Below, piece by piece: positions 1-41,490 of a stretch of DNA of 41,490 nt. Under the pieces are notes generated by a model. That model ran no database searches and was not told the DNA's origin. It worked only from the letters and a program-made list of their open reading frames with translations. The position numbers were made by a program, and so were the translations under genes. The stretch spans positions 1 through 41,490 of the forward strand of contig JAEZJH010000582.1 in the NCBI GenBank assembly GCA_023436385.1, in the 5' to 3' direction. The stretch comes from Pseudomonadota bacterium. GTDB lineage: Bacteria; Myxococcota; Myxococcia; Myxococcales; Vulgatibacteraceae. Every line of letters starts with the position of its first letter. Position 1 is the stretch's first letter.

Positions 1-127
1 ACCCGCGTCGTCTCGAACGTCGCCGTGCTCACCGAGGGCTGGGACTGCCCGGCCGTCGAGGTCTGTATCCTCGCACGCCCCACGCTCTCCGTGGGCCTCT
101 ACCTGCAAATGGTCGGGCGGGTGTTGC
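1..127. repeat. Left copy of the exact 127-bp terminal direct repeat (identical to 41364-41490)
   Basis: Direct comparison of both contig ends: acccgcgtcgtctcgaacgtcgcc...ggtcgggcgggtgttgc occurs at both. Confidence 0.95.
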
Positions 128-1324: not shown

Positions 1325-3447
1325 CCATCACCATCGGCGCCGGGCGGCGCAATCCGCGCGGCCGGCGCCTCCCCCTCGAGCCACAGGTGCCGCCCGCCCG
1401 CGCCCTGGCGGAAGCGCTAGCGAGGCAGCCCGCGAGCAAAGAGGCGTGGTGGAGCCCGCATCTGTGGCAGGGCGAGCACCGCAAGCAGGACGGGTGGGAG
1501 GGCGCGTCGGCCATCGCCATCGACCTCGACTACCACGACGCCGCCGGGACGCATACGGAACCGCCCGCCGAATCAGTCAGGGCGCTGCAAACCCTCGCGG
1601 CCACCGGAGCCCTGCCCGGCTCCCTGCTGCATCTGACGCCCCGCGGGGCGCGGCTGGTGTTCTGCCTGCCAGACCTCGCCGCCGACCGCGAGCGGTGGGA
1701 GGGCGCGGCGCGGGAGGCCGGTAGGCGGGTGGCCGCGGCGATCGGCAGCGCCTCCGGCTACCGGGTGGATCCGGCGGTTCTGGTCGATACGGCGCGCTTC
1801 CTCTACTCGCCCCGGGCCAAGGTGGATGGGAAGGCCAGAGACGCCGCGGTCCAGGTGCTGCGCGACGAGCCCTACACGCTCGAGGAGCTCCAGCCGGCCG
1901 ACACCGAGCCCCCCGCGCCGCCCCAGCCGAAGCCGGTAGCCGTATCCCTCGAGGATGCCATCCAGCGCTACAACGCCGACCACGCGCGCGAGTGGCCGAA
2001 GTCGGACGGGGACTGCCCGGCCTGCGGTCACAGGCGGTGTTTCGCGCGGCTCCCATCCGATCCATCTCGCTGGGTCTGCTTCTCGTCTTCCCACTCGCAG
2101 CCCGGCATCCAGGCCAACAACTGCCACCACGGGGACGCGCTCGACCTGGACGCCTACACCCAGTCCCTCAAGCCCGCCGAGCTGCTGCGCCGAGAGGGCT
2201 ACCTCCCCGCCGCACGGCTCGCCCCCGCGCCTCCGGCCGAGGCTGGAACCGCTGTCGGAACCGAATCCGCGACCCAAGACCCCGCCCCGCTCACCTACGG
2301 CAAGGGCTACGCCACCGTCGTTCAGATCCTCCGGCACGACTCCCGGGTGATCCCCGAACCCCTCGAGTGGAACGAGATGCTGTGCTCGCCCACCATCGGC
2401 GGCGTCCCGGTGGAGGACTCGACAGTGGGCGTCATCCGCGAGCGGATCGAGTGCTACTGCCGGGATTCCAAGGGCAAGCCGCTCCGGCCGTCCGCGGCCG
2501 ACATCACGATGGCCATCGACCAGGTGGCCCAGGAGCACCGCTACCACCCCGTGGCCGAGTACCTCCGGTCCCTCCGTTGGGACGGGCTCGAGCGGATCTC
2601 GCTCGTCGCGCCGGACGTGCTGGGGGTCAAAGACTCCGAACTCGCCCAGTTCATCCTGCGCCGCTGGTTCATCAGCGCCGTAGCCCGCCCGCTCGACCCG
2701 GGCTGCAAGGTCGATACGGTGTTGATCCTCAAGGGCTCCCAGGGCGCGCTCAAGTCCACCTTCTTCGCCACCCTCGCCGGGCCGGATTGGTTCGCGGACA
2801 CGGCGATCGACATCGGCAACAAGGACGCCCTGCTGATCCTCCGGCGCGTCTGGATCCTCGAGTGGGCCGAGCTCGAGGCGATGTCCCGAGCCCGGGACGC
2901 GGGCGCCGTCAAGGCGTTCCTCTCCTCCCGCTCCGACACCTACCGGCCGCCGTTCGGGCGCCGGGTCGTGGACGCCAAGCGGCACTGCGTCATCGTCGGC
3001 TCGACCAACGAGGACGATATCCTCTCCGACTCCACCGGGAACCGGCGCTACTGGGTCCTCCCCGTGCCGGGCCGCATCGACACCGCCGCGCTCGCACGCT
3101 GGCGCGACCAGCTATGGGCGGAAGCCGTCCACCTTTACCGAAGCGGCGAGCGCTGGTGGCTGACGCCAGACGAGGAGGCGGTCATGGAGGAGGCCCAGGC
3201 GCACTACCTGCGCTCCGATCCGTGGGAGGAACTGATCGGCGCGTGGCTTTCCAGGCGCGACCACTTCACCCCCCTCACCACCTCCGAGGTGCTGGACAAG
3301 GCCCTCCGCAAGCCCGAGGGGCAGTGGACCTCGGCCGACCAGCGCCGGGTCGCCAGCGTCCTCCGGGCTCTAGGGTACGAGTCCCGCACCGAGCGGGACG
3401 CCGGTGGAGGCCGGGCGCGCTGCTGGATCCGCAGGGCCACGGGCTGA
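1318..3447 (+). CDS. Bifunctional primase-polymerase / VirE (D5-like) NTPase replication protein
   Basis: TTG at 1318 lies 8 nt after GAGGAGG (alternative start GTG 1387). AIAIDLDYHD is a prim-pol acidic motif; CPACGHRRCF is a zinc finger; ILKGSQGALKSTF is a Walker A; WILEWAELE and GSTNEDDILSDSTGNRRYWVLPV are typical of VirE/D5 C-terminal NTPases. Confidence 0.8.
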   Translation: MLAITIGAGRRNPRGRRLPLEPQVPPARALAEALARQPASKEAWWSPHLWQGEHRKQDGWEGASAIAIDLDYHDAAGTHTEPPAESVRALQTLAATGALPGSLLHLTPRGARLVFCLPDLAADRERWEGAAREAGRRVAAAIGSASGYRVDPAVLVDTARFLYSPRAKVDGKARDAAVQVLRDEPYTLEELQPADTEPPAPPQPKPVAVSLEDAIQRYNADHAREWPKSDGDCPACGHRRCFARLPSDPSRWVCFSSSHSQPGIQANNCHHGDALDLDAYTQSLKPAELLRREGYLPAARLAPAPPAEAGTAVGTESATQDPAPLTYGKGYATVVQILRHDSRVIPEPLEWNEMLCSPTIGGVPVEDSTVGVIRERIECYCRDSKGKPLRPSAADITMAIDQVAQEHRYHPVAEYLRSLRWDGLERISLVAPDVLGVKDSELAQFILRRWFISAVARPLDPGCKVDTVLILKGSQGALKSTFFATLAGPDWFADTAIDIGNKDALLILRRVWILEWAELEAMSRARDAGAVKAFLSSRSDTYRPPFGRRVVDAKRHCVIVGSTNEDDILSDSTGNRRYWVLPVPGRIDTAALARWRDQLWAEAVHLYRSGERWWLTPDEEAVMEEAQAHYLRSDPWEELIGAWLSRRDHFTPLTTSEVLDKALRKPEGQWTSADQRRVASVLRALGYESRTERDAGGGRARCWIRRATG

Positions 3448-9080: not shown

Positions 9081-9464
9081 ATGTCGCGAACCGTCGCCCT
9101 CGCCCTGCTATCGGCGGGGTGCGTGGCGGCGTGCGACCCCGTGCCGCTGCCGGTCGTGTGCGGCGTCAGCGTCGATTGGGGGCCGCAGCCGGCAGACGAG
9201 CCGGGGCTGTGTGCGGCGGTGGAAGCAGAGCCGGCCGGTAGCGATGGCGCGCGGGTCAGCTTCGCCGACGAGATCCGCGGCGAGTGCAGGACCGCGAGGG
9301 AGATCGCCGGCTGCTTCGACCCGGAGTTCGATTGGATCTGGGTGAGGCCGGCTGACGCATTGGAGCGGACCGCGCTGGCGCATGAGCTGAAACACCGGCG
9401 GCTGTGGCTGGAAGGGAAAGACCTCGACTACGCCCACGACGGCGAGATTTGGAGACATCCTTGA
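9081..9464 (+). CDS. Predicted lipoprotein with an HExxH motif
   Basis: MSRTVALALLSAGCVAAC is a signal peptide with lipobox VAAC. HELKH is a possible zinc-binding motif. Confidence 0.55.
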   Translation: MSRTVALALLSAGCVAACDPVPLPVVCGVSVDWGPQPADEPGLCAAVEAEPAGSDGARVSFADEIRGECRTAREIAGCFDPEFDWIWVRPADALERTALAHELKHRRLWLEGKDLDYAHDGEIWRHP

Positions 9465-11801: not shown

Positions 11802-11864
11802 CCGGGCGCGGATGCGTCCCGGTCACACGGGGTGCATCGGGCACCCGGAAGGAGAGAGCAGGGC

Positions 11865-13103
11865 ATGACGATCCAGCAGATGCGAGAGAAGCGGCAGGCA
11901 CTGGCGAAGGAGATCCGAGACCTCCTCGACAATAACCCCGGGGCGAAGTGGAAGGAGAACCCGGAGAATCAGACGAAGTACGACCGCCTGTCGGCCGAGA
12001 TCGCGGATCTCGACGGCGAGATCAAGCGGCACACCGACCAACTCGAGCGCGAGGCAGCGAACTTCGCGTCCAACGTCGCGCACGGCACCGTCACGACGAT
12101 CGACCGCGACGACCCCGAGGCCGAACACAAGCGCATCTTCAACAAATGGATGCGTGGCGGCGACCGGGCATTGAACCGCGAGGAGGTGGATTTCCTCGCG
12201 CGGCGTGTTGCCAGTGGACCGCAGAACACGCTGTCTACCACGGTCCCTGCCGAGGGAGGGCACACCGTCCCGACCACGACCGCCGGGCAGATCATCGCCG
12301 CGCTCAAGGCGTTCGGTGGCATCCGCGAAGCGGCGACCGTGTTCTCGACCGCTGGCGGCGAGGCAATGAACTGGCCCACCGGCAACGCCACCGCGGAGGA
12401 GGGCGAGATCGTCGGGCAGAATGCGCCGGCCGCGAAGCTCGACCCGAGCTTCGGCGTCAAGTCGATCGGTGCGTTCTGGTACAGCTCCAAGGAGATCGCG
12501 GTCCCGAGGGAGCTCCTGCAGGATTCCGCGATCGACATGGAGGCGTACCTCGTCTCCGTGCTCAATCAGCGGATCGGCAGGATCACCACCAAGCACTTCA
12601 CCACCGGCACCGGCGTCGGTCAGCCCGAGGGCCTGGTCACAGCTTCGACCCAGGGCGTGCAGGGCGCTAACGGGCAGACCACCACCGTCACCTACGACGA
12701 CATCATCAAGCTCATCCACTCCGTGGACCCTGCGTATCGCGGCCCCAACTGCCGGCTGATGATGCATGACTCCACTCTCCTCGCGCTGCGTCTCCTCAAG
12801 GACGGGCAGCAGCGGCCGCTGTGGCAGCCGGCCATCACGGAGAACGAGCCCGACCGGATCGCCGGCTACGGGTACATCATCAACCAGCACATGCCGGTGA
12901 TGGCGGCCAACGCGAAGTCGATCCTCTTCGGTGACTTCAGCCGCTACTACATCCGCGACGTGATGCAGGTGCAGCTGTTCCGTATGGAGGACAGCAACTT
13001 CATCCGCAACCACCAGGTCGGCTTCCTCGCGTTCAGCCGTCACGACGGCAAGCTGATGGACGTTGGCGGCGCGGTGAAGCACTACGCCAACGCGGCGGCG
13101 TGA
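11865..13103 (+). CDS. Major capsid protein, HK97 family
   Basis: ATG at 11865 follows GGAAGGAGAG. N-terminal coiled-coil delta-domain-like segment, then an HK97-fold-like body of about 410 aa. Position after the protease. Confidence 0.9.
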   Translation: MTIQQMREKRQALAKEIRDLLDNNPGAKWKENPENQTKYDRLSAEIADLDGEIKRHTDQLEREAANFASNVAHGTVTTIDRDDPEAEHKRIFNKWMRGGDRALNREEVDFLARRVASGPQNTLSTTVPAEGGHTVPTTTAGQIIAALKAFGGIREAATVFSTAGGEAMNWPTGNATAEEGEIVGQNAPAAKLDPSFGVKSIGAFWYSSKEIAVPRELLQDSAIDMEAYLVSVLNQRIGRITTKHFTTGTGVGQPEGLVTASTQGVQGANGQTTTVTYDDIIKLIHSVDPAYRGPNCRLMMHDSTLLALRLLKDGQQRPLWQPAITENEPDRIAGYGYIINQHMPVMAANAKSILFGDFSRYYIRDVMQVQLFRMEDSNFIRNHQVGFLAFSRHDGKLMDVGGAVKHYANAAA

Positions 13104-13105
13104 TC

Positions 13106-13273
13106 ATGGCTCGCGTCCGATTCCTGGTAGCGGTCGCCGGCCACGACGTTTCGATTGCGCCGGGGCAGGTGGTCGAGATGGACGATGCCGCCGCCGTGCT
13201 GTGGTGCGACGGCGTGCGGGCCGTGCGCGTCGAAGAATCGAAGCCTGCCCAGAAGACGCAGCCAAAGAGGTGA
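13106..13273 (+). CDS. Small hypothetical protein (55 aa)
   Basis: ATG lies 2 nt after the capsid stop. Fills the capsid-connector gap. Not in the ORF track because it is under 60 aa. Confidence 0.4.
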   Translation: MARVRFLVAVAGHDVSIAPGQVVEMDDAAAVLWCDGVRAVRVEESKPAQKTQPKR

Positions 13274-13277
13274 CAAG

Positions 13278-13862
13278 ATGGCCCTGGTTCTCACGACCCC
13301 GCCGGCCGCCGAGCCGGTGAGTCTCGCGGATGCGAAACTCCACCTCCGCGTGGACTCGACCGACGAGGACTCGCTGATTTCCAGGGCCATCCAGTCGGCG
13401 CGCGAATACGCCGAGACGTTCACGCGCCGGCAGCTCGTCGCTGCGGCCTACCGGCTGGAGCTCGACCGCGCCCCGTGCTCCGGTAGGTGGGCGGCGATCC
13501 CGATCCCGCGCCCGCCGCTTGCGAGCGTGGAGTCGGTGCGCTACCGCAAGCCGGGCGCTGCCGACTACACCGAGATCGACCCGGCCCGATATGCGGTGGA
13601 CACCGCTTCGGTGCCGGGCCGGGTCATCCTGCTCGACGGGTGGCCCGCGCTCGACACGGAGCGGCCCGCCGCGCTCGTGGTTGAATTCACCGCCGGCACG
13701 GAGCCCGAGGCGGTTCCGGCCGGGATCGTGGATGCGATCCTCGTGATGGTCGGGGATGCCTACGAGAACCGGAGCAGCGTGATCGTCGGCACGGTGAGCA
13801 GCCAGATCGCGCGCACAGCCGACCGGCTGCTGTCGCCGTATGCGGTCGGGGTGATCTCGTGA
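13278..13862 (+). CDS. Head-tail connector protein (gp6-like)
   Basis: VSLADAKLHLRVDSTDEDSLISRAIQSAREYAETFTRRQL is the characteristic N-terminus of gp6-like connectors. Confidence 0.8.
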   Translation: MALVLTTPPAAEPVSLADAKLHLRVDSTDEDSLISRAIQSAREYAETFTRRQLVAAAYRLELDRAPCSGRWAAIPIPRPPLASVESVRYRKPGAADYTEIDPARYAVDTASVPGRVILLDGWPALDTERPAALVVEFTAGTEPEAVPAGIVDAILVMVGDAYENRSSVIVGTVSSQIARTADRLLSPYAVGVIS

Positions 13863-16020: not shown

Positions 16021-16301
16021 ACCTATGGGCGACGTGCCGGTACGACCTGGGCCTATCGGATGCCGATGCCGGTAGGCTCACGCTGCGACAGATACATGCC
16101 CTGCTTGCGAGACACCGCGAGGCCGAGCGCCGCGCCGACTACCGGAGCGGAGTGCTTGCCTCGCTGATAACTGGCTTCGGCGGCAAGCCCAAGCCGCCCG
16201 GTGCGTTCTTCCCATCCTTGGCCGACACCAGCCGACGCATGGACGCAGACGCGATCTATCGCAAGCTGCTACACATCAGGACCATGTTCGCAAAGGAATA
16301 G
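15673..16301 (+). CDS. Tail assembly chaperone G-T fusion, made by a -1 programmed frameshift at 15999-16005
   Basis: The -1 frame is open from 15945 to TAG 16299-16301 and has no plausible start of its own. It encodes WATCRYDLGLSDADAGRLTLRQIHALLARHREAERRADYRSGVLASLI, which is gpT-like. The heptamer G_GGG_GGC is in the 0 frame. Confidence 0.6.
15999..16005 (+). promoter_or_regulatory. Candidate -1 frameshift slippery heptamer G GGG GGC
   Basis: X XXY YYZ pattern in the chaperone reading frame (codons gcg-ggg-ggc start at 15997). Confidence 0.5.
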
Positions 16302-16305
16302 CCTC

Positions 16306-18603
16306 ATGGCCGTCAAGTTCGGTTCGATCTTTCTGCAGATCGAAGCCAACATCGCGTCCCTAAAGCGCGATATGGACCAGGCGCAGAAGACGATCGCGAC
16401 GGCCGGCGCGAAGCTCGACCGGATCGCGAAGGGCATCGGCGCGGCGATCGGCGGATACATCGGCTGGCAGTCGGTGCGCGCCTTCGCCGGCTTTGTCCAG
16501 GGCGCGCTCGATTCAGCGGACGCCCTGGTCAAGATGTCGCAGAAGACTGGACTCACCGTCGAGGCGTTGTCCGGATTGCAGCACGCCGCAAGCCTGTCAG
16601 ACGTGTCGGTGGAGCAGCTGGCCACCGGGCTCAAGCAGCTGTCGAAGAATGCGTCCGACGCGGCTGGCGGCGCGAAGGAGCAGGCCGAGACGTTCAAGGC
16701 GATCGGCGTCGAGACGCGGGACGCAACCGGCGCTGTGCGTCCGCTCGACCAGCTCCTTGCCGACGTGTCCGACCGCTTCGCGTCGTGGGAGGATGGCGCC
16801 GGCAAGTCGGCCATCGCCATGCGTCTGTTTGGCAAGGCCGGCGCCGACATGATCCCACTGCTGAACGGCGGGTCGGCTGGTATGGCCGAGGCGACGGAGG
16901 AGGCGCGGAAGCTGGGGCTTGTCGTCTCGACCGACACGGCACAGGCCGCAGAGCGATTCAACGACAACATGACGCGGCTCAAGTCGCAGCTCGATGTTGT
17001 CGCCAGGCTGATCGCGGAGGCCGCGCTGCCGTCTCTTGAGCGCGTCTCCGAAGCGATGGTGGACGCGGCAAAGAACGGCGACGAGGCGCGCGAATCGCTT
17101 CGCACGATGTTCGACGGCGCGATCGACACCGCGATGTTTTTCAAGACGCTCCTGGCTGACATCGGTGGCGGAATCGGCGCGATGGCGGCGATGGCCTCGC
17201 AGTTCGAGCTAGGCGATACGTGGGAGCATCCGGCCAAGAAGTTCTGGCGGAACTGGGCGCCGGAGTTCCTGAACTCGGACTCGTCGTGGGCGCGCGCCGC
17301 ACGTATCGACACGATGGCGCAGGAGGACTCGAAGCGGCGCTGGCAGGAGTATTGGGACTTCGTGAGCCGTGGCGGCGCCGCGGCCGTGGCTGCCGGCGTC
17401 GGCGCGGTTGAATTTGTCGGACCGGCCCTCGACCCAAGGACGCACGCGGCTGATGGCACGCGCAAGCGCAGCGCCCCGGTCATCGATCGCGGAGGCAAGA
17501 CCGACGAGCGAGCGAAGCAGCTATCTGCCGCGCTCGAAAGCATCCGTGAGGAAGCGGAAGCGATCGGCAAGACCGAGATCGAGATCAAGCTAGCCAAGCT
17601 GATCGAGATGGGCGCGAACTCGAAGCAACTGGATCTCGCCGCCGTTCGTCTTGGTGCCATCGCCGACGAGGCAAAGCGGCTCGCGGAGTACGAGGCCAGG
17701 GTCGCGGAGCGCGTTGGGGTGTGGGATCAGCTCGCCTCCATCCAAGAGCAGATCGACACCGCCGGCATGGACGAGTACCAGCGCGCCGGCTACGACTACG
17801 CGCTGATGCCGGGGCGGACGGAGGAGACGGACAGGCTGTTCACCGATCGGATCGCGCAGCTCAAGACGGTCAACGAGCAGCTCGACGCGACCAAGGCACG
17901 CACCGAGGCAATCAAGGGGATAGCCACCGATGTCGGCGGCGTCCTTTCGTCGGCCATCGTCGCCCCTCTACAGGATGGGTTCAAGGGGCTGAAGACGTAC
18001 GTGGACATGCTGCGGGATGCGATCGTCCGTCTCGTGCAGGAGATGGCCGCGGCGCTGATCCGAAGCGGGCTGATCAAGCTCCTTTCGACCGCACTCGACT
18101 TCGTGTCGCCGGGCTGGGGCTCCATCTTCGGGCAGGCGGCCGGCGCGGCGAACAACGCCTACACGCAACAGTCCGGCTCCGGCTTCCAACTCGAGTACGG
18201 TACCGGCTGGGGCAACGGGACAACGGCTTACGCTGGCGGCGGGAAGGTGCTTGGCCCCGGCGGTCCCACCTCCGATAGCGTCCGGCTGTGGGGATCGCGC
18301 GGCGAGTGGATGATCCAGCAGAAGGCGGCGGCGCACTACGGCGATCGGGTGATGGCTGCGATCAACTCCATGCGTATCCCGCGGGCCGCCCTCCAGGCTG
18401 TCGCTGCCGGCGGCATGACCGGGATGCCGATCCCAGGGCGCGGCGAGACGCACTACCACTTCGCCTCTCTCGACCCGCTTACCGGGCTCGAGATGATGCG
18501 TTCGGTCGCCGCTCCCGGCCTCGCCCGCCACCTGTCGGACGGCACGGCCGGGCTGCTGCCGGCACACATTCGCGCCGCGACCGCGGCCCCGAGGGCTAGC
18601 TGA
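16306..18603 (+). CDS. Tape measure protein
   Basis: 765 aa, Ala/Gly/Leu-rich and helical, with a C-terminal glycine-rich region. Canonical position. Confidence 0.9.
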   Translation: MAVKFGSIFLQIEANIASLKRDMDQAQKTIATAGAKLDRIAKGIGAAIGGYIGWQSVRAFAGFVQGALDSADALVKMSQKTGLTVEALSGLQHAASLSDVSVEQLATGLKQLSKNASDAAGGAKEQAETFKAIGVETRDATGAVRPLDQLLADVSDRFASWEDGAGKSAIAMRLFGKAGADMIPLLNGGSAGMAEATEEARKLGLVVSTDTAQAAERFNDNMTRLKSQLDVVARLIAEAALPSLERVSEAMVDAAKNGDEARESLRTMFDGAIDTAMFFKTLLADIGGGIGAMAAMASQFELGDTWEHPAKKFWRNWAPEFLNSDSSWARAARIDTMAQEDSKRRWQEYWDFVSRGGAAAVAAGVGAVEFVGPALDPRTHAADGTRKRSAPVIDRGGKTDERAKQLSAALESIREEAEAIGKTEIEIKLAKLIEMGANSKQLDLAAVRLGAIADEAKRLAEYEARVAERVGVWDQLASIQEQIDTAGMDEYQRAGYDYALMPGRTEETDRLFTDRIAQLKTVNEQLDATKARTEAIKGIATDVGGVLSSAIVAPLQDGFKGLKTYVDMLRDAIVRLVQEMAAALIRSGLIKLLSTALDFVSPGWGSIFGQAAGAANNAYTQQSGSGFQLEYGTGWGNGTTAYAGGGKVLGPGGPTSDSVRLWGSRGEWMIQQKAAAHYGDRVMAAINSMRIPRAALQAVAAGGMTGMPIPGRGETHYHFASLDPLTGLEMMRSVAAPGLARHLSDGTAGLLPAHIRAATAAPRAS

Positions 18604-19358
18604 TGCGCGTGCTCACCGACAACCTCGCCGCCAGCGCAACGCTCCTGGGCTCCGGCGGCTCCGCGCTCGCGGCGGCTACCGGATACACCGTGGCATCGCT
18701 CACGGACGGGCGCCTCGACCGCCCGTGGAAATCGCCCACGGCCGGCAGCACGCACCAGATCGTCCTCGACCTTGGCAGCGCGCAGTCGGCCAGCGCCGCG
18801 GCTGTCTTCGACCTGTATGCGCCCGTGTTCCTTAACGGGCGTGTTTCGATCTACACCGGGACTTCTGCCACTGGCCCGTGGACCAAACGTGCCGACCTGA
18901 CAGGCGCCGGCCGGCGCGATTGGGGCGGCACGTTCGCCCCCGTCTCGTCGCGCTACTGGATGGTCGAGTTGTTCTCGCTCACCTCAGGCACGCAGCCAGA
19001 GCTTGGCGAGATCGTGCTGGGCGTGCCGACCGATCTGCCGTGTGCAACCGCGCTGTCTCCGCGTCTCGTGGAACAGGTCGAGACGAATGGCAGCCAGGCG
19101 ACCAAGACGGGCGAGGAGATCGCGTCGTTCGGGATCGCCTGGCCGGTGCTGACGGAGGCCGAGCACGCGGCCCTCATCCTGTTCCGTCGCGCGGTCGGTG
19201 GCGCGCTCAAGTCCTTCGTGCTCTGGCCCCGGCCGGCGAAGGCGGGCGGCGTGTATTTGGTCCGGCTAGCCGCCGGCATCGGATGGAATGAAGACCTTGA
19301 CCTCTACGACGGCGTGGCCCTCGAGGCCACCGAGCTAGCGCGGGTGCTGCGTGGCTGA
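18603..19358 (+). CDS. Minor tail protein (distal tail candidate)
   Basis: ATG overlaps the tape-measure stop (TGATG). Assigned by position only. Confidence 0.55.
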   Translation: MRVLTDNLAASATLLGSGGSALAAATGYTVASLTDGRLDRPWKSPTAGSTHQIVLDLGSAQSASAAAVFDLYAPVFLNGRVSIYTGTSATGPWTKRADLTGAGRRDWGGTFAPVSSRYWMVELFSLTSGTQPELGEIVLGVPTDLPCATALSPRLVEQVETNGSQATKTGEEIASFGIAWPVLTEAEHAALILFRRAVGGALKSFVLWPRPAKAGGVYLVRLAAGIGWNEDLDLYDGVALEATELARVLRG

Positions 19359-19887
19359 TCTACTCCGCAAGATCGAGGTGCGCGGCGGGTCGCGTCCGCT
19401 ACAGTACGCGGTGCGCGACGTGCGCGGCGTCGAGCCGCTTGCCGCAGCGCCGACCGACCGCACCGGGTTCAACGAGGAGGCCGAGTGGACCGGGCGTGCT
19501 GACGCGGCGCTGAACAACGAACACGACGCGGAAGGTAACCACGGCGGGCTCAAGTTTCCGTTCTGCGTCGTCGTCGTGTCGGGCGAACTTGACGCGACCG
19601 TGTATCCGCCGATCATGCGCTGGACTATCGACCATGGCTCCACGCTTCGCGGCGTCACGTACCGGGACGATCCATTTGTGTCGTTCGAAACCGCATCGGC
19701 CTCGACGGTGAAGCTCGCGTTTGCGAGCCCGCCTGCCTTCGGGGATGTGGCGGTGCATGTCGAGGGCGTGAGTCGTCCGGTGATCATGTTCCCATCGTCC
19801 ACCGAGATCGAGTTCGACACGGACTCGCTTGGCGCGCTTCGGAGCAACGGCGGCCATTGGGTGTTCTCGCTCTACGAGGTGGCGTGA
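19351..19887 (+). CDS. Minor tail protein (hypothetical)
   Basis: GTG at 19351 overlaps the upstream 3' end. Inside the tail-tip module. Confidence 0.5.
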   Translation: MADLLRKIEVRGGSRPLQYAVRDVRGVEPLAAAPTDRTGFNEEAEWTGRADAALNNEHDAEGNHGGLKFPFCVVVVSGELDATVYPPIMRWTIDHGSTLRGVTYRDDPFVSFETASASTVKLAFASPPAFGDVAVHVEGVSRPVIMFPSSTEIEFDTDSLGALRSNGGHWVFSLYEVA

Positions 19888-20897
19888 TGCGGGAGCTTCC
19901 AGACTACACGGGGATCGTCGTCGCCCCGAATGACCCGGTAGCGCCCGAGTCGCTGAACCTTCCAAGCCGTTATTCGGAAGCCTTCCGCGACGTGTATGCG
20001 AGAGAGCACCGGGTCGATGACTTCGAGCACTCCGCGCCCCTCGCACCGCAGGCAGTCGCCTACTGCCGATGGGTCGGCAGCAGCTACGAGCTGACCGTCT
20101 CGCACAACGTCGAGTCGGTGATTGCGAACGGCACAGGCGACGTTGTGATCACGCTGTCGGTCGCATCGGCCACTCGCGAGGACTGGTTCCCGATCGTAGC
20201 CATCCAGCGCGTGGACGGCGACAAGCCGGCGATCTGGTGGGAGTACGACGACGGCACGACCCGCGACGTGGACCGCTGCCGGCTCCGGTTCTGCGCCGTC
20301 GTCGGCGGCGACACGACCGACACAATGCCCGACTTCGTGTTTTGGGCATACATGCGGCAGCGCGTGGGCGACGGCGACTCAACGCCGGAAGCAGTGCGCG
20401 ACGTGCGGCAGCGCATCGCCGTGGATGGTGTGGAGAGTGCCGGCCACCGGCAGAAGCTGATCGATTTCTGCGTCTCGCACCGGGCCCGCTGGATCAAGGG
20501 TCACGACAAGGACGCGCGACACTTCCCGCCGCAGTATCCGCTGGCCGCTTTCCAAGTCGCCAAGACGGAAGGCCGATCGAACCTGGGCGAAGTCCTGTGG
20601 CAGCACGGCCCACTCGCCAGCCTCGCGTGGCGCGGCGAAGCCGTGGATTCGCAGGACGATCCATACGTCGCCTGGCAGGTCGCGCAATACAAGCGGTGGC
20701 GGTCGGCGCTGCTGTCGTGGCGCATCGCCAGCGCCGACCCGTACACCAAGGACTTCGCCCCGTGGGTGCGCCGCATCTCGCGCGCCGACGACTACGGGTC
20801 ATGGGCCCGGGGCGGTGGCATCGGCGCGCAGATCGACAGCGCCGCAGGATGGGCTGCGGTGACCGGGATCGGCGTTGTGCTGACGGGGATGCTCTAG
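19887..20897 (+). CDS. Tail-tip associated hypothetical protein
   Basis: ATG at 19887 overlaps the upstream TGA. 336 aa with a hydrophobic C-terminus. Confidence 0.5.
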   Translation: MRELPDYTGIVVAPNDPVAPESLNLPSRYSEAFRDVYAREHRVDDFEHSAPLAPQAVAYCRWVGSSYELTVSHNVESVIANGTGDVVITLSVASATREDWFPIVAIQRVDGDKPAIWWEYDDGTTRDVDRCRLRFCAVVGGDTTDTMPDFVFWAYMRQRVGDGDSTPEAVRDVRQRIAVDGVESAGHRQKLIDFCVSHRARWIKGHDKDARHFPPQYPLAAFQVAKTEGRSNLGEVLWQHGPLASLAWRGEAVDSQDDPYVAWQVAQYKRWRSALLSWRIASADPYTKDFAPWVRRISRADDYGSWARGGGIGAQIDSAAGWAAVTGIGVVLTGML

Positions 20898-21298
20898 ATG
20901 CAGTCGGCCACGCCAGCGTGGTCCCAAGCGCCTTCGCTGCCGTCGGCACGGTAGCGCACCTGGCCGCTGTTGCAGCAAGCATCGTTGTCGATGTGGTTGG
21001 GCCAACAGCCTGGCTTGACGCAGCCGAATAGCTCTGGCTCGTCGTACGCAAGACGGCGGCAGCCGGCCTCCACGCCACCGCAGCAGCACTCGACCACATC
21101 GTTCCCGATGGTGACGGTCGAACGCCCGGTATACCAGCAGAACGTCGTTGGTTTCGTGTCGGTGCAGTAGGTCGCCCGCAGTCCGGTAGATGGGTCCGCC
21201 GTGTAGTCGTAGCAGAACAACGGATCGCCGCGGATGCCGGCCTGGTCCGTGCCGCCACAGGCCGCGACCACCACCGCCGCCAGAATCACCCAGCGCAT
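20894..21298 (-). CDS. Cysteine-rich lipoprotein encoded antisense within the tail module (moron; superinfection-exclusion candidate)
   Basis: ATG at 21298 lies 6 nt after AGGAGG. MRWVILAAVVVAAC is a signal peptide with lipobox VAAC. 12 further Cys residues in the 121-aa mature part. It is one of only two minus-strand candidates, with 23485..23604, in 20 kb of plus-strand late genes. Confidence 0.7.
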   Translation of the reverse strand: MRWVILAAVVVAACGGTDQAGIRGDPLFCYDYTADPSTGLRATYCTDTKPTTFCWYTGRSTVTIGNDVVECCCGGVEAGCRRLAYDEPELFGCVKPGCWPNHIDNDACCNSGQVRYRADGSEGAWDHAGVADCI

Positions 21299-21357
21299 AG
21301 CCATCCTCCTCGCCGGTAGGCCACCGCAGCCAGCCAGAGATTGCAAGGGGAATCCGC

Positions 21358-23505
21358 ATGCCTTCCGCTATCCGCCGCTCGTGGCGCGTCAAAACCCGCC
21401 TCTTTGAAGGTGACTTCTACGACGCCTTCGGCGCGAAGACCACCCACGTCCGGTGGTCCACCGCCCCGTTCCGCCTCGCGGATGGGCCGGTAGAAGGTCG
21501 GCTCGCGGTGACGCCCAGGACCAGCTTCGGGATCGGCGAGGCGGTGTCGAGCGTCCCGGAGAAGTGCCAGGCAACGCTCGAGCTGGACAACCTCGACGGC
21601 GCGCTGACCAGGTACGTCATTGGCACGGAGGCCGGGCCTGGCCAGGAGTACCGCGGCGACTCGCTCCTCAATCTGCGCGGACGGCTCTACGCCTGCTATC
21701 TCCTCGAGGATGGCACCTATGACAAGCAGCCGTTGACGCCCATGCTTGCGTGCTCCGGCTCACCCACAATCACCGAGACGACGATCACCCTGCCGATGGC
21801 GTCGGACGACACGACGATCCTCGGCAAGCCGCGGCCGACTGTGACGATGGGGCAGCTTCGCGGCGTGCCAGTCGTCCAGCCCGGCGACAAGTTCTCGCTG
21901 CACGGTGCCGACCGCGGGTACAACGAGGACTTCCAGGCGCTTGAGCGCGCGCTGTCCGGAAACCTCGATGTTGTGCTCCCCTACGCCTACGGCCGGGTGC
22001 CAGTCCCGTTGATCCCCGCGGACGGCGACGGCAAGCGTCTGTATCTGCTGTTCGCGTCGAAGCACAAGCCGACGCTCTCTGACGCCGCGGAGTGGGACTT
22101 CTTCGGCCCGCCCGCGAAGCGCGACGAGGTGCCGCTCGCGGGGAAGACGGCGACCGAGGAGCGGTTCAAGTCGGCGCTCGTGTCCGCCCAGGTCGAGCTC
22201 GAGGACGACGAGGGTGAGACGCACGCGGTCTGGATCGTGTGGCTGGAGACGACGAGTTCGATCGGGGCCAGGATCGATGACACGATTTGGGCGCTCGCTC
22301 CAGGGACAAACCTTCTCTCTGCGAGCGCCGCCGGCCGTGGACGCGCCACGCCTCCCTCGATCGCGCGGTGGCTGATTGAGGATCTGTCGGAGGCCGGGGC
22401 CGCTGGTGTGGACGTCACCAGCTTCACCGCCGCCGCCAAGGCGCTGCCGCTACCGGACGCATGCGGCGGCCTGGTGCGTGGCGACGGCGACCTCCGCGAG
22501 TTGCTGACACACATCGGCTCCCCGTGGGCGCTGTCGTGGTGGATCGGCCTCGACGACAAGCTCCACGTCGGCGTGCCGGGCCAGTGGAGCGAAGCGGACC
22601 GGGCGGCGATCAAGTCGAGCGACACACCGCACATCACCCCCGCCGACTTCGCCGCTGGCTACGGCGCGCCCGGCTCGTATGCGGAGACGATCCCAGCCGA
22701 CCCTGAGCAGCGCGGGTCCGCCGTCCGCAAGGTGTCGCTCGAGTGGAGCGATGCCCAGCGCGCGGCGTGGCCCGCACACGAACTGCCGCGCTGGGCCCCT
22801 GGCGCGACCGAGCTACCGGTGCAGCCGGGCGACGAGGCGCGGCTGTCGGCGGCATGGCTTTACCCGCCGGCCGCGGTGTCGGTGCTGGCGAGCGGCGGGG
22901 CACGGCGGGTGTTTCCGACGCGGCGGATCACGCTGCACATGCACGACTGGATCGGCGTGCTCGAGCGCCAGTCCATCGTCCTGTTCTCGATGCCGGGGCG
23001 GTACGAGCGAAGGGCGCTGAGGCTGGAACACACTGCCGACGACTCGCGCGAGTACGTCGTGGCCCGCTTCGAAGACTTGGGGCCGACGTCCGCGCAGAAG
23101 CCCGCGCTCTACGACTCGATCGACAACTGGATCGGCCTCTCCCCAACGGCTGGGCAGGGAATCAGCGTCACCGCCGGTAGCGACCTCGTCTGGTTCGGCA
23201 TCGGCGCAGCCGATGACAAGCTGGTCGGAATGCACCTTCACACGCCCGGCGGCACTCCCGGGAACCGCGCCATCGCGCGCCGGATCACGGAGAGGGTAGA
23301 CAGCGCGCAGATGCGCGTCGAGTTCCCGTTCGTGGATACGGAGTCCTTCGTCGGTGTCTCCGGGAAGCCGGTGCTCGACCAGCCGTGGCACATCCTCAAG
23401 TCGCAGGCCAACAAGCCGGCTAACGACACGTACTTGACCGCGGCCGACGAAAGCACCGGCACCTTCCGCGACGGGTCGCCGGGCTTCACGGTGGCCGCCG
23501 GGTGA
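21358..23505 (+). CDS. Large tail-tip / host-specificity-like structural protein
   Basis: 715 aa, the last and largest gene of the tail module. No motif recognised with certainty. Confidence 0.55.
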   Translation: MPSAIRRSWRVKTRLFEGDFYDAFGAKTTHVRWSTAPFRLADGPVEGRLAVTPRTSFGIGEAVSSVPEKCQATLELDNLDGALTRYVIGTEAGPGQEYRGDSLLNLRGRLYACYLLEDGTYDKQPLTPMLACSGSPTITETTITLPMASDDTTILGKPRPTVTMGQLRGVPVVQPGDKFSLHGADRGYNEDFQALERALSGNLDVVLPYAYGRVPVPLIPADGDGKRLYLLFASKHKPTLSDAAEWDFFGPPAKRDEVPLAGKTATEERFKSALVSAQVELEDDEGETHAVWIVWLETTSSIGARIDDTIWALAPGTNLLSASAAGRGRATPPSIARWLIEDLSEAGAAGVDVTSFTAAAKALPLPDACGGLVRGDGDLRELLTHIGSPWALSWWIGLDDKLHVGVPGQWSEADRAAIKSSDTPHITPADFAAGYGAPGSYAETIPADPEQRGSAVRKVSLEWSDAQRAAWPAHELPRWAPGATELPVQPGDEARLSAAWLYPPAAVSVLASGGARRVFPTRRITLHMHDWIGVLERQSIVLFSMPGRYERRALRLEHTADDSREYVVARFEDLGPTSAQKPALYDSIDNWIGLSPTAGQGISVTAGSDLVWFGIGAADDKLVGMHLHTPGGTPGNRAIARRITERVDSAQMRVEFPFVDTESFVGVSGKPVLDQPWHILKSQANKPANDTYLTAADESTGTFRDGSPGFTVAAG

Positions 23506-23688: not shown

Positions 23689-24138
23689 GTGCGCCTAACG
23701 CCGCACTTCACCCTCGCAGAGATGACCGTCACGCAGCAGCGCGGGATCGACAACACCCCTGGCCACGTCGAGATCGCGCGGCTGCAAGAGCTTTGCGCCA
23801 CGCTCCTCGAACCGCTCCGCACGCGGTTCGGCGCCATCATCATCACGTCCGGCTACCGGTGCCCGGAACTCAATGCCCGCATCGGCGGCAGCAAGACTAG
23901 CGCGCACATGCTCGGGCTCGCCGCCGACTGCCACGCTTGGGACCCGGCGGTGACGATCGAGGACATGGCCAGGTGGATCGCCGGTAGCGGGCTGCCCTTC
24001 GACCAGGTGATCGATGAGCGGTCGGGCCGATCCCGATGGCTGCACGTCGGGCTGCCGCGCCCGGGGCACACGCCGCGCCGCGAGTGCCTGATCTACCGGG
24101 ACGGCGAATACATGCTCGCGGATTGGGGGAGCCCATGA
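23689..24138 (+). CDS. Endolysin, peptidase M15 (zinc D-Ala-D-Ala / L-Ala-D-Glu peptidase fold)
   Basis: FTLAEM...ITSGYRCPELN...SAHMLGLAADC...WLHV is the M15 H-D-H metal-site pattern. Confidence 0.85.
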   Translation: MRLTPHFTLAEMTVTQQRGIDNTPGHVEIARLQELCATLLEPLRTRFGAIIITSGYRCPELNARIGGSKTSAHMLGLAADCHAWDPAVTIEDMARWIAGSGLPFDQVIDERSGRSRWLHVGLPRPGHTPRRECLIYRDGEYMLADWGSP

Positions 24139-24371
24139 CCTGGAGCGAGCGCATCGAATTGATCGGGCTCGTCGTCGCCGTCGCCTCGATTCTCTGCTCC
24201 GTCGTCAACGCGGCGATCCGTGCGGCGGTCGAGCACGGCTACCGGGTGCCGCGCTGGCTCCTCGTCGTGGCCGCCGCTGCGAACGCGGCGGCGCTGAACC
24301 TCGACAAGGCCGACCAGCTCCGGCGCGGCTACCGCGGGCCGTCGCTGCCGCGGGATCGGGGGCTGCCGTGA
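24135..24371 (+). CDS. Holin candidate
   Basis: ATGA overlap with the endolysin stop. 78 aa, two hydrophobic segments and a charged C-terminus. Confidence 0.55.
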   Translation: MTWSERIELIGLVVAVASILCSVVNAAIRAAVEHGYRVPRWLLVVAAAANAAALNLDKADQLRRGYRGPSLPRDRGLP

Positions 24372-25054
24372 GAGACATACTCCGAACCGCCACCCTCCTC
24401 GCCGCAGGCGCGGTCCTCGCCCTCCTCCTCGCCCGCTCCTGCTCAAGCCCGCCGCCGGTAGTGGTCGATGCCGTGGAGCTCCATCGCATCGAGACGGAGA
24501 GGGCGAGGCTCGCGGAGGAGGTCGCCCGCGAGCACGCGGCGATCGACGCGCGGGCGCGGGAGCTGGCGGGGCTTCCGCTGTACGAGCGGATCGAGGTGCT
24601 GACCGTAAGCGAATCCGCACGGCGGGCCGCTTCCGTAAGCGAATCCGCAAGGGCACCGGCCTTTGATAAGGACGCCGCGCCGGGAGCCGTATCAAAGCCC
24701 GACCGCTGCCGCCCTACCGGCGACGGCCACGCCCTCTGTCCGGAGTGGGTCCTCGACGCGCTGACCCTGCGCCTCGTGAGCGCCGAGGCCGACCGCGACT
24801 CGGCCCGCCTCGACCTCGACGCGGAGCGGGTCTACCGCCGGCTCGACGCGGAGGCGGCGGCGACCCGGGAGGCGGGATACCTCGCCGCCCTCGACGCAGC
24901 GAAGCCGCCGGCAGCGTGGCGGCTACCGGCGGCGGTGGTTTCGGGGGCGGCGGTAGCGGCCGGGGTTGCCGCTGCCATCGCCGGACACGAGCGGACTGGC
25001 GCCGCCATCGGCATCGGCGGGGCGGTGCTGGTGGGGGCGGCGCTCGCGCTCTAG
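24368..25054 (+). CDS. Spanin-like protein (unimolecular-spanin topology candidate)
   Basis: GTGA overlap with the holin stop. N-terminal signal/anchor ending in ...LLARSC, a central Ala/Arg/Glu-rich helical region and a C-terminal TM (AIGIGGAVLVGAALAL). Confidence 0.45.
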   Translation: MRDILRTATLLAAGAVLALLLARSCSSPPPVVVDAVELHRIETERARLAEEVAREHAAIDARARELAGLPLYERIEVLTVSESARRAASVSESARAPAFDKDAAPGAVSKPDRCRPTGDGHALCPEWVLDALTLRLVSAEADRDSARLDLDAERVYRRLDAEAAATREAGYLAALDAAKPPAAWRLPAAVVSGAAVAAGVAAAIAGHERTGAAIGIGGAVLVGAALAL

Positions 25055-40533: not shown

Positions 40534-41490
40534 GCCGCCAGATCCTCCGGCCCTACCAGGCCGACGCCCTTGAGGGGATCCGCGAGGAGCTGCGCGGCGG
40601 GCGGCGAAGGGTGCTGCTGGTGTCGCCTACCGGGAGCGGGAAGACGACGATCGCCGCGGAGATGGTGCGGTCGGCTGTCTCGCGCGGGAACCGGGTCTTG
40701 TTTCTCGCCCACCGCAAGGAGCTGATCGACCAGTGCTCCGCGCGGCTCGACGGGTGCTCCGTCCCGCACGGCGTCATCATGGCCGGGCACCCCAGGTATC
40801 AGCCTCTCGAGCCGGTGCAGGTGGCTTCGATTCCGACGCTGGTTCGGCGCGAGCCACCCCCGGCCGATCTGGTCGTGTTGGACGAGGCGCACCACGCCCG
40901 CGCGCGCACCTACGAGCGGATCCTCGAGCACTACCCGAGGGCGCCGGTAGTGGGGCTGTCGGCTACGCCCTGGCGCATCGACGGCAAGGGCCTGGGCGAG
41001 CTGTTCGAGGCTGTCGTCGTCGCGGCGCGGGTGCGATCGCTGATCGAGGCCGGGCACCTCGTCTCATACAGCGGCTTCGCCTACGACCATCCGTCGCTCG
41101 CTTCGGTGGACAAGCGGGGCAGCGACTACGACCAGCGCGGCCTCGAGCTCGTCATGGGCGGGCGCAAGCTGATCGGCAACATCGTCGGGCAGTGGCAGAG
41201 ACACGCCTCGAACGCACGCACCGTCGTCTTCGCCTGCACCGTGGCCCACAGCAGGGAGGTGGTCGAGCGCTTCCGGGCCGCTGGCGTCACTGCCGAGCAC
41301 CTGGACGGCGAGACACCGAAGGAGGAGCGGGCGGCGATCCTCGCCCGTCTCGCCTCGGGCCGAACCCGCGTCGTCTCGAACGTCGCCGTGCTCACCGAGG
41401 GCTGGGACTGCCCGGCCGTCGAGGTCTGTATCCTCGCACGCCCCACGCTCTCCGTGGGCCTCTACCTGCAAATGGTCGGGCGGGTGTTGC
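40530..41490 (+). CDS. SF2 DEAD/DEAH-box helicase, N-terminal part (runs off the contig end and continues at 1..567; about 466 aa in total)
   Basis: GTG at 40530 overlaps the upstream TGA. LRPYQ is a Q-motif region, SPTGSGKT is motif I and LDEAHH is motif II. No stop before 41490. Confidence 0.9.
   Translation, partial: MSRQILRPYQADALEGIREELRGGRRRVLLVSPTGSGKTTIAAEMVRSAVSRGNRVLFLAHRKELIDQCSARLDGCSVPHGVIMAGHPRYQPLEPVQVASIPTLVRREPPPADLVVLDEAHHARARTYERILEHYPRAPVVGLSATPWRIDGKGLGELFEAVVVAARVRSLIEAGHLVSYSGFAYDHPSLASVDKRGSDYDQRGLELVMGGRKLIGNIVGQWQRHASNARTVVFACTVAHSREVVERFRAAGVTAEHLDGETPKEERAAILARLASGRTRVVSNVAVLTEGWDCPAVEVCILARPTLSVGLYLQMVGRVL
41364..41490. repeat. Right copy of the exact 127-bp terminal direct repeat
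   Basis: Identical to 1-127. Confidence 0.95.

Follow-up and report, generated by a model that had tools for sequence, protein, structure and literature searches.

Few phage exclusion factors are understood at the level of structure. Receptor-blocking lipoproteins belong to these few, and all known ones are tiny and come from coliphages. The gene for Llp lies adjacent to and downstream of the T5 receptor-binding gene pb5, and Llp jams FhuA from the periplasm (PMC9586334). Rtp45, a protein of ∼6 kDa, blocks LptDE in like manner (PMC12685063), and in small siphoviruses a locus beside the central fibre hub holds the genes for receptor-binding proteins and exclusion factors (PMC11990801, PMC12685063). 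Cor, found in T1, phi80, N15, and HK022, is a lipoprotein of the outer membrane; it blocks the receptor FhuA and is encoded beside the tail tip J gene (PMC13164509). Here, we describe a lipoprotein gene at 20894..21298 on the minus strand of a 41,490-nt stretch of metagenomic phage DNA (contig JAEZJH010000582.1; the whole stretch is called the window below), where it lies antisense between two tail genes, p340 and p720. By analogy with T5 Llp, T1 Cor, and Rtp45, its product may be a periplasmic or outer-membrane superinfection-exclusion lipoprotein tied to host-recognition genes, a reading to which we give about an even chance. If it does the same job, a disulfide-rich and well-folded lipoprotein of 11–13 kDa without a recognisable fold would broaden that class. 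Another phage lipoprotein that has to be considered is Bor of lambda, a member of the Bor/Iss family conferring serum resistance, whose small gene is opposed to the late operon, lies by the lysis genes, and is expressed from the prophage.

A Lipoprotein Gene Antisense to the Tail Genes

The open reading frame (ORF) at 20894..21298 (−) is a genuine gene. An earlier reading of the letters alone, referred to here as the original prediction, had singled it out as the only well-supported minus-strand gene among the late genes, and the gene calls of the ENA copy agree: the ORF is called separately there and is the only opposite-strand call among the tail and lysis genes, and the other minus-strand ORFs in the first 25 kb (1..25 kb) all overlap plus-strand genes. 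One of these, at 13082..13423, has a gene-like codon pattern; it overlaps a plus-strand head-tail connector gene and was rejected as a shadow of the head genes. The lipoprotein ORF occupies the only gap between the plus-strand genes p340 and p720, and its frame is the sole one open throughout the seven lineages examined. Across lineages, identity at the first, second, and third codon positions is 0.62, 0.60, and 0.51, the third being the lowest, and differing codons stand behind 37% of the identical aligned residues; contig pairs that carry an identical lipoprotein in different samples are also identical in DNA and yield no ratio of nonsynonymous to synonymous substitution (dN/dS). A Shine-Dalgarno sequence of the GGAGG type is kept at the same position in all seven relatives inspected.

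The gene encodes 134 amino acids (aa) including the signal peptide, beginning MRWVILAAVVVAAC, and ends with the stop codon at 20894..20896. Its own Shine-Dalgarno sequence, AGGAGG at 21305..21310 (−), is separated by 6 nt from the ATG at 21298, which bears out the strong ribosome-binding site that had been predicted. The signal peptide and lipobox, MRWVILAAVV-VAAC (21257..21298, −), match the PROSITE pattern PS51257, {DERK}(6)-[LIVMFWSTAG](2)-[LIVMFYSTAGCQ]-[AGS]-C, which goes with a basic n-region and an uncharged h-region, and Cys14 is the predicted lipidated residue. PS51257 expects this Cys at positions 15–35; numbered from the ATG at 21298, whose spacing from the Shine-Dalgarno sequence is good, it is residue 14, an in-frame ATG at 21304 would make it residue 16, and in the relatives it stands at 14–16. 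Downstream of the lipobox Cys follow a predicted disordered tether (residues 15–22; 21233..21256, −) and a predicted globular, all-beta, Cys-rich domain (residues 29–134; 20897..21214, −). The 12 further cysteines of the original prediction, with the CCC and CC clusters, are all present; 10 of the 12 proved to be conserved, and the CCC cluster turned out to be specific to this phage.

At its 3′ end, the gene shares a CTAG palindrome (20894..20897) with p340, the lipoprotein TAG being read at 20896..20894 and that of p340 at 20895..20897, just as the predicted interlocking of the stops required. At its 5′ end, a divergent intergenic region of 59 bp (21299..21357) holds the ribosome-binding sites of both the lipoprotein gene and p720, and a promoter of the lipoprotein gene, if any, must fall in this region or within the 5′ end of the 715-aa gene p720. 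Three conserved motifs upstream of the lipoprotein gene (TTCCCCTTGC, TAGGCT, and CTTGAC) were considered as a promoter and rejected: they are accounted for by the ribosome-binding site and the N-terminal codons of p720 and are therefore not evidence of a promoter.

Base composition does not set the gene apart. Its GC content had been thought slightly lower than that of the flanks; at 65.9%, against 67.2% and 69.1% in the neighbours, it lies within the range of local 400-nt windows (0.63–0.75), and GC at third codon positions (GC3) is 0.82 compared with 0.84–0.88 in the neighbours. A foreign origin on grounds of GC was dismissed, since the composition is like that of the neighbours.

A Small Family with a Probably New Fold

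A word-indexed search with the single lipoprotein sequence against 5.8 billion proteins returned only the sequence itself. phmmer, run exhaustively over 1.84 billion representative proteins, brought up nine small relatives, to which a profile search contributed one more; all ten are metagenomic, 106–140 aa long, and 34–46% identical to the query. Two long matches, P0009 and P0010, are tandem-repeat proteins that align over a 20-residue Cys/Trp motif only and were discarded as spurious. The lipoprotein, its surrounding region, and p720 matched nothing in 50,697 phage genomes (blastn and tblastn), and a scan of viral contigs for loci of the family found no relatives.

The predicted lipoprotein signal is shared by nearly the whole family: PS51257 is matched by 10 of the 11 members including the query, with the Cys at 14–16 followed by Gly-Gly, and a Lys or Arg stands within the first seven residues of all members. 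The tether is longer in the relatives, rich in Gly, Asp, and Ser, and variable in length in the alignment. Within the domain, ten cysteines are invariant or nearly so (query residues 29, 45, 54, 71, 80, 93, 98, 108, 109, and 133), which implies an oxidising compartment; Cys72 and Cys73 occur in the window phage only, so that just the first Cys of the CCC cluster is conserved. FCWWTGR and IDNDPCC are further conserved motifs of the domain, and the mature proteins are small (9.5–13.3 kDa) and acidic (isoelectric point 4.05–4.65).

Given the alignment of the 11 sequences, AlphaFold2 produced a model with a mean predicted local distance difference test score (pLDDT) of 86, in which an all-beta domain of ∼11 strands sits on a disordered tether; pLDDT falls below 50 at residues 15–22 and, taken in 10-residue blocks, is 92–96 from residue 30 to the C-terminus. 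Two members, P0005 and the 106-aa P0012 (L004, 10001..10321), are without the C-terminal hairpin, and because P0012 has lost Cys108 and Cys133 together, these two suggest themselves as a pair. This small family matches no known family, and its fold, as far as the model goes, is probably new.

A Dispensable Passenger of One Tail-Tip Module

The lipoprotein gene is part of a plus-strand neighbourhood that begins with the tape measure gene (16201..18603), which has PHROGs and Pfam matches, and continues with p252 (251 aa, 18603..19358), p172 (178 aa, 19351..19887), p340 (336 aa, 19887..20897), which is convergent with the lipoprotein gene, and p720 (715 aa, 21358..23505), which is divergent from it and closes the row of tail genes ahead of the lysis cassette. 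The tail-tip proteins encoded downstream of the tape measure (18603..23505), four in all, match nothing in Pfam, PHROGs, NCBIfam, PDB sequences, or the 50,697 phage genomes; neither p340 nor p720 belongs to a known family, and only ∼7–9 relatives of p720 exist among the 5.8 billion proteins. No relatives came from scans for p720 loci in genomes, viral contigs, and metagenomes, for p340 loci in viral contigs, or for the L013 fragment described below in viral contigs. PDB profile searches with p340 and p720 gave nothing useful, and the AlphaFold2 model of p720 was poor (pLDDT 45), leaving its fold search uninformative. This post-tape-measure module is essentially undescribed.

The antisense slot between the p340 and p720 homologues holds a lipoprotein gene of the family in eight lineages, namely, the window, L002/L003, L004/L005, L006, L007/L008, L009/L010, L011, and L014. 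The 4-bp CTAG overlap of the stops is found in six of the eight (in the relatives L002, L004, L006, L007, and L009), and the order tape measure-p252-p172 accompanies the lipoprotein gene in L002, L004, L007, L009, and L011. Between lineages, the lipoproteins are 33–50% identical and the flanking p252, p172, p340, and p720 are 41–62% identical; since the divergence of the lipoprotein is similar to that of its flanks, it was inherited with the tail-tip module throughout the divergence of these phages. The rest of these genomes is far less uniform. The capsid of the window (11832..13103) is only 23% identical to that of L002 (18891..20129), and the integrases of phages sharing the module differ, being a serine recombinase in the window, a tyrosine integrase in L004, or a protein with no Pfam match. 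Judged by these comparisons, the phages are strongly mosaic, and the tail-tip block and its lipoprotein gene move as a unit.

Three relatives depart from this arrangement. First, in L013, which comes from the window's own sample, a p340-like C-terminus and its stop are followed after 9 nt by the start of p720, with no lipoprotein gene. Second, the region upstream of p720 in L012 is taken up by three small co-directional genes, and the lipoprotein gene is likewise missing. In a neighbour-joining tree of p720, both L013 and L012 nest among the lipoprotein-bearing lineages. Third, L015 (1..1817) carries the family member P0004 in a rearranged context, antisense between a 57-aa ORF and a GH19 endolysin gene of the lysis cassette; the 57-aa ORF has a p720-like C-terminal tail and is preceded by what is left of an M15 endolysin, 15 N-terminal residues and a stop. 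The arrangement is suggestive of recombination or decay near a lipoprotein gene that was itself retained. L015 is the only place outside the tail-tip module in which the family was found among the 1.84 billion representative proteins. Tails without the gene (L013, L012) and a gene without an intact p720 (L015) therefore mark it as accessory and not structural. The sequences thus portray the lipoprotein gene as a long-standing yet dispensable passenger of one tail-tip module.

The original prediction of an inserted moron accordingly stands in one respect, in that the gene is accessory and missing from L013 and L012, whereas a recent or foreign insertion is not borne out, given the same slot in eight lineages, the flank-like divergence, the indistinct composition, and the lack of a detected promoter or terminator. 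The survey for different cargo at the same position, which had been proposed along with it, gave a divided answer: eight lineages hold the same family, and an unrelated Cys-rich ORF lies beside p720 in L013. This ORF (2315..2464, −) is convergent with p720, its 3′ end lying 8 nt past the p720 stop; the contig covers only its final 49 residues (AQCEANCLDV...YWQERW), which contain six Cys; its GC3 is 0.86, and it is not related to the lipoprotein family. It may be an alternative cargo beside p720.

Proposed Function and Its Alternatives

The window is a temperate siphophage-like genome of metagenomic origin with a GC content of 69.6%. Given an exact terminal direct repeat of 127 bp (1..127 and 41364..41490), the contig probably represents a whole phage genome of ∼41.4 kb, assembled as a circle. 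Plus-strand genes for replication, packaging, head, tail, and lysis span ∼1 to 25054 and include those for VapE, TerS, TerL, portal, an HK97-type capsid, the tape measure, and an M15_3 endolysin; a minus-strand block from 25051 onward includes a large serine recombinase (integrase). Known phages gave no nucleotide match to the window. The nearest relatives of capsid and TerL, at 44–52% identity, belong to phages of Halomonas, Ralstonia, Vibrio, Bordetella, Burkholderia, Pseudomonas, Psychrobacter, and others, and all 18 capsid relatives in species-representative genomes fall in Proteobacteria (including Massilia, Ralstonia, Methylobacterium, Sphingomonas, and Enterobacteriaceae); none of these has the tail-tip module. 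Because the nearest relatives of the head genes are all proteobacterial, the host probably has an outer membrane; with the small, single-domain endolysin and the spanin-like layout of the last lysis protein, both described below, pointing the same way, it is probably a high-GC, diderm proteobacterium. A diderm host would place the lipoprotein in the periplasm or the outer membrane, where at least 10 cysteines can be oxidised.

The gene product is best read as an exported, lipid-anchored protein, in which a short predicted Sec/lipoprotein signal, with its cleavage site ahead of Cys14, leads over a flexible tether into an all-beta domain that is acidic, measures ∼11 kDa, and is probably locked by 5–6 disulfides. 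Being read from the opposite strand, the gene is probably transcribed on its own and not with the late operon, either in the prophage or at an early stage of infection. Processing by Lgt, LspA, and Lnt would leave the protein lipidated, and Lol would probably sort it to the outer membrane because of the Gly at +2, a residue that in the E. coli rule goes with outer-membrane sorting. DsbA would form five or six disulfides in the periplasm, and the folded lipoprotein would bind the receptor or entry machinery that its own phage uses at the envelope. The lysogen or the infected cell would thereby be closed to phages sharing that tail tip, and progeny would not be lost on cell debris. The role named in the original prediction, superinfection exclusion or receptor masking, is likewise an analogy with lipoproteins whose genes adjoin those for receptor binding.

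Several results weigh against this proposal. Neither in sequence nor in fold does the lipoprotein resemble Llp, Cor, Rtp45, or any other protein searched, and in its mature form it is roughly double the ∼6 kDa of the known exclusion lipoproteins. Profile searches against Pfam, PHROGs, NCBIfam, PADLOC, and PDB sequences gave no match. The Foldseek check that had been suggested for the predicted structure returned nothing meaningful from the PDB (best E 0.86, template-modelling (TM) score <0.2), in a copy that runs to April 2026 and is thus later than the Llp and Rtp45 complexes, or from BFVD, with TM scores <0.25 over both; the original prediction had recognised no family, and these searches agree. 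In P0002, Phe replaces the lipobox Cys, and its product may be secreted or uncleaved instead of lipidated. A consensus scan of 20300..21900 found no sigma-70-like promoter and no intrinsic terminator, although the consensus may not suit a 70%-GC host. In a mirror-tree analysis that is underpowered, the lipoprotein and the tail genes co-vary weakly (r 0.48 and 0.24). Finally, neither p340 nor p720 is recognisable as a receptor-binding protein by PDB profile or fold searches.

A bolder version of the exclusion reading, which we consider unlikely, holds that p720 is flanked by a "slot" for antisense, Cys-rich exported proteins, filled mostly by this lipoprotein family and in L013 by the unrelated Cys-rich gene, and that the family would be a new disulfide-locked fold blocking phage entry by a mechanism or target unlike those of Llp, Cor, and Rtp45, for example as a surface-exposed receptor mask or a tail-tip inhibitor.

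Among the other functions, a lysogenic-conversion or fitness factor unrelated to exclusion (acting in adhesion, in stress or serum resistance, or by inhibition of a periplasmic enzyme, like lambda Bor) is unlikely but survives best. An orientation opposite to the late genes in a temperate phage, the dispensability of the gene, and its retention in L015 at a seemingly rearranged or decayed tail-lysis junction would all suit such a factor. Conversion cargo, however, usually differs from relative to relative, whereas here one family occupies one tail-tip slot in eight lineages at 33–50% identity, and among the representative proteins it is confined to this module except for L015.

Unlikely, too, is an exclusion aimed at the incoming phage, in which the periplasmic lipoprotein would bind or inhibit tail-tip or tape-measure proteins that a superinfecting phage brings in. 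Spackle of T4, which inhibits the gp5 tail lysozyme, and Ltp of TP-J34, which blocks the tape measure, are of this type. In its favour, the lipoprotein gene is strictly linked to the tail-tip genes and diverges in parallel with them, it travels with the module among otherwise mosaic genomes, and its product has a rigid, binding-type domain on a tether; against it stand the lack of homology to Sp or Ltp, the weak co-variation with p340 and p720, and L015, which keeps the gene without an intact adjoining p720.

We regard as quite improbable that the protein is an accessory of morphogenesis or release, that is, an envelope protein on which the maturation of the tail tip, or else release or lysis at the outer membrane, would depend. 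Its gene is embedded among structural genes with tight packing and overlapping stops and lies directly upstream of the lysis cassette in L015, but it is read from the strand opposite to all late genes and is missing from L013 and L012 despite an intact p720, and an exported lipoprotein is an improbable partner for cytoplasmic tail assembly. That the ORF is no gene at all, being a frame left open by chance in 70%-GC DNA or the shadow of a gene on the plus strand, is hardly credible, because, plentiful as long spurious ORFs are in the window and little as GC at the first codon position exceeds that at the second (0.59 vs. 0.56), no plus-strand gene covers the region, ten relatives share the lipobox and cysteine pattern, the frame is the sole one open in all lineages with substitutions biased to synonymous ones, the Shine-Dalgarno site is conserved, and AlphaFold2 gives the domain a pLDDT of ∼95.

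Other Features of the Window

A second candidate lipoprotein gene lies just upstream of the portal gene at 9081..9464 (+). It encodes 127 aa beginning MSRTVALALLSAGC, with several Cys and an HELKH (HExxH-like) motif, and matches nothing in PHROGs or NCBIfam. In the lysis region, the M15_3 endolysin gene (23689..24138, +) encodes a small, single-domain protein. The last gene of the lysis cassette (24368..25054, +) encodes a 228-aa protein with no family match; it has an N-terminal signal or transmembrane segment (LLAAGAVLALLLARSC), a middle part rich in Ala, Arg, and Glu, and a C-terminal transmembrane segment. This layout resembles that of a unimolecular spanin, which would fit a diderm host. 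A weak match to the N-terminus of this protein was found after the GH19 cassette in L015. No tRNA genes were found in the window.

Comparison with Known Systems

The general phenomenon of phage lipoproteins linked to tail-tip genes is already well known; what is new here is the family, probably its fold, and the unusually stable antisense position. Host and phage are known from metagenomes alone, on about a dozen contigs, and the family has ∼11 members in the 1.84 billion representative proteins. The lipoprotein could act as a bait for the receptor of this uncultured phage group, and the presence/absence variants L013, L012, and L015 are natural controls.

Like T5 Llp, the protein is encoded by a phage gene adjoining tail-tip genes, is predicted to be periplasmic and anchored in the outer membrane, and is proposed to disable the receptor of its own phage; unlike Llp, with which it shares no sequence or fold similarity, it is ∼13 kDa in its mature form with 10–12 Cys, and the window phage is temperate whereas T5 is lytic. 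With Rtp45 it has in common that a lipoprotein is encoded at the tail-tip locus, although the two proteins are not similar and the window gene lies antisense between two tail genes instead of following a receptor-binding gene. A lipoprotein gene in the tail region is also the feature shared with Cor, from which the window protein differs in size and cysteine content and in having no PHROG or Pfam match. Lambda Bor offers the parallel of a temperate phage whose small lipoprotein gene runs counter to the late operon; the window protein, however, matches no Pfam family at E up to 0.1, and its gene is tied to the tail-tip module. The lipoprotein of the window belongs to no known family but, by analogy, resembles a known kind, the tail-tip-linked exclusion lipoproteins.

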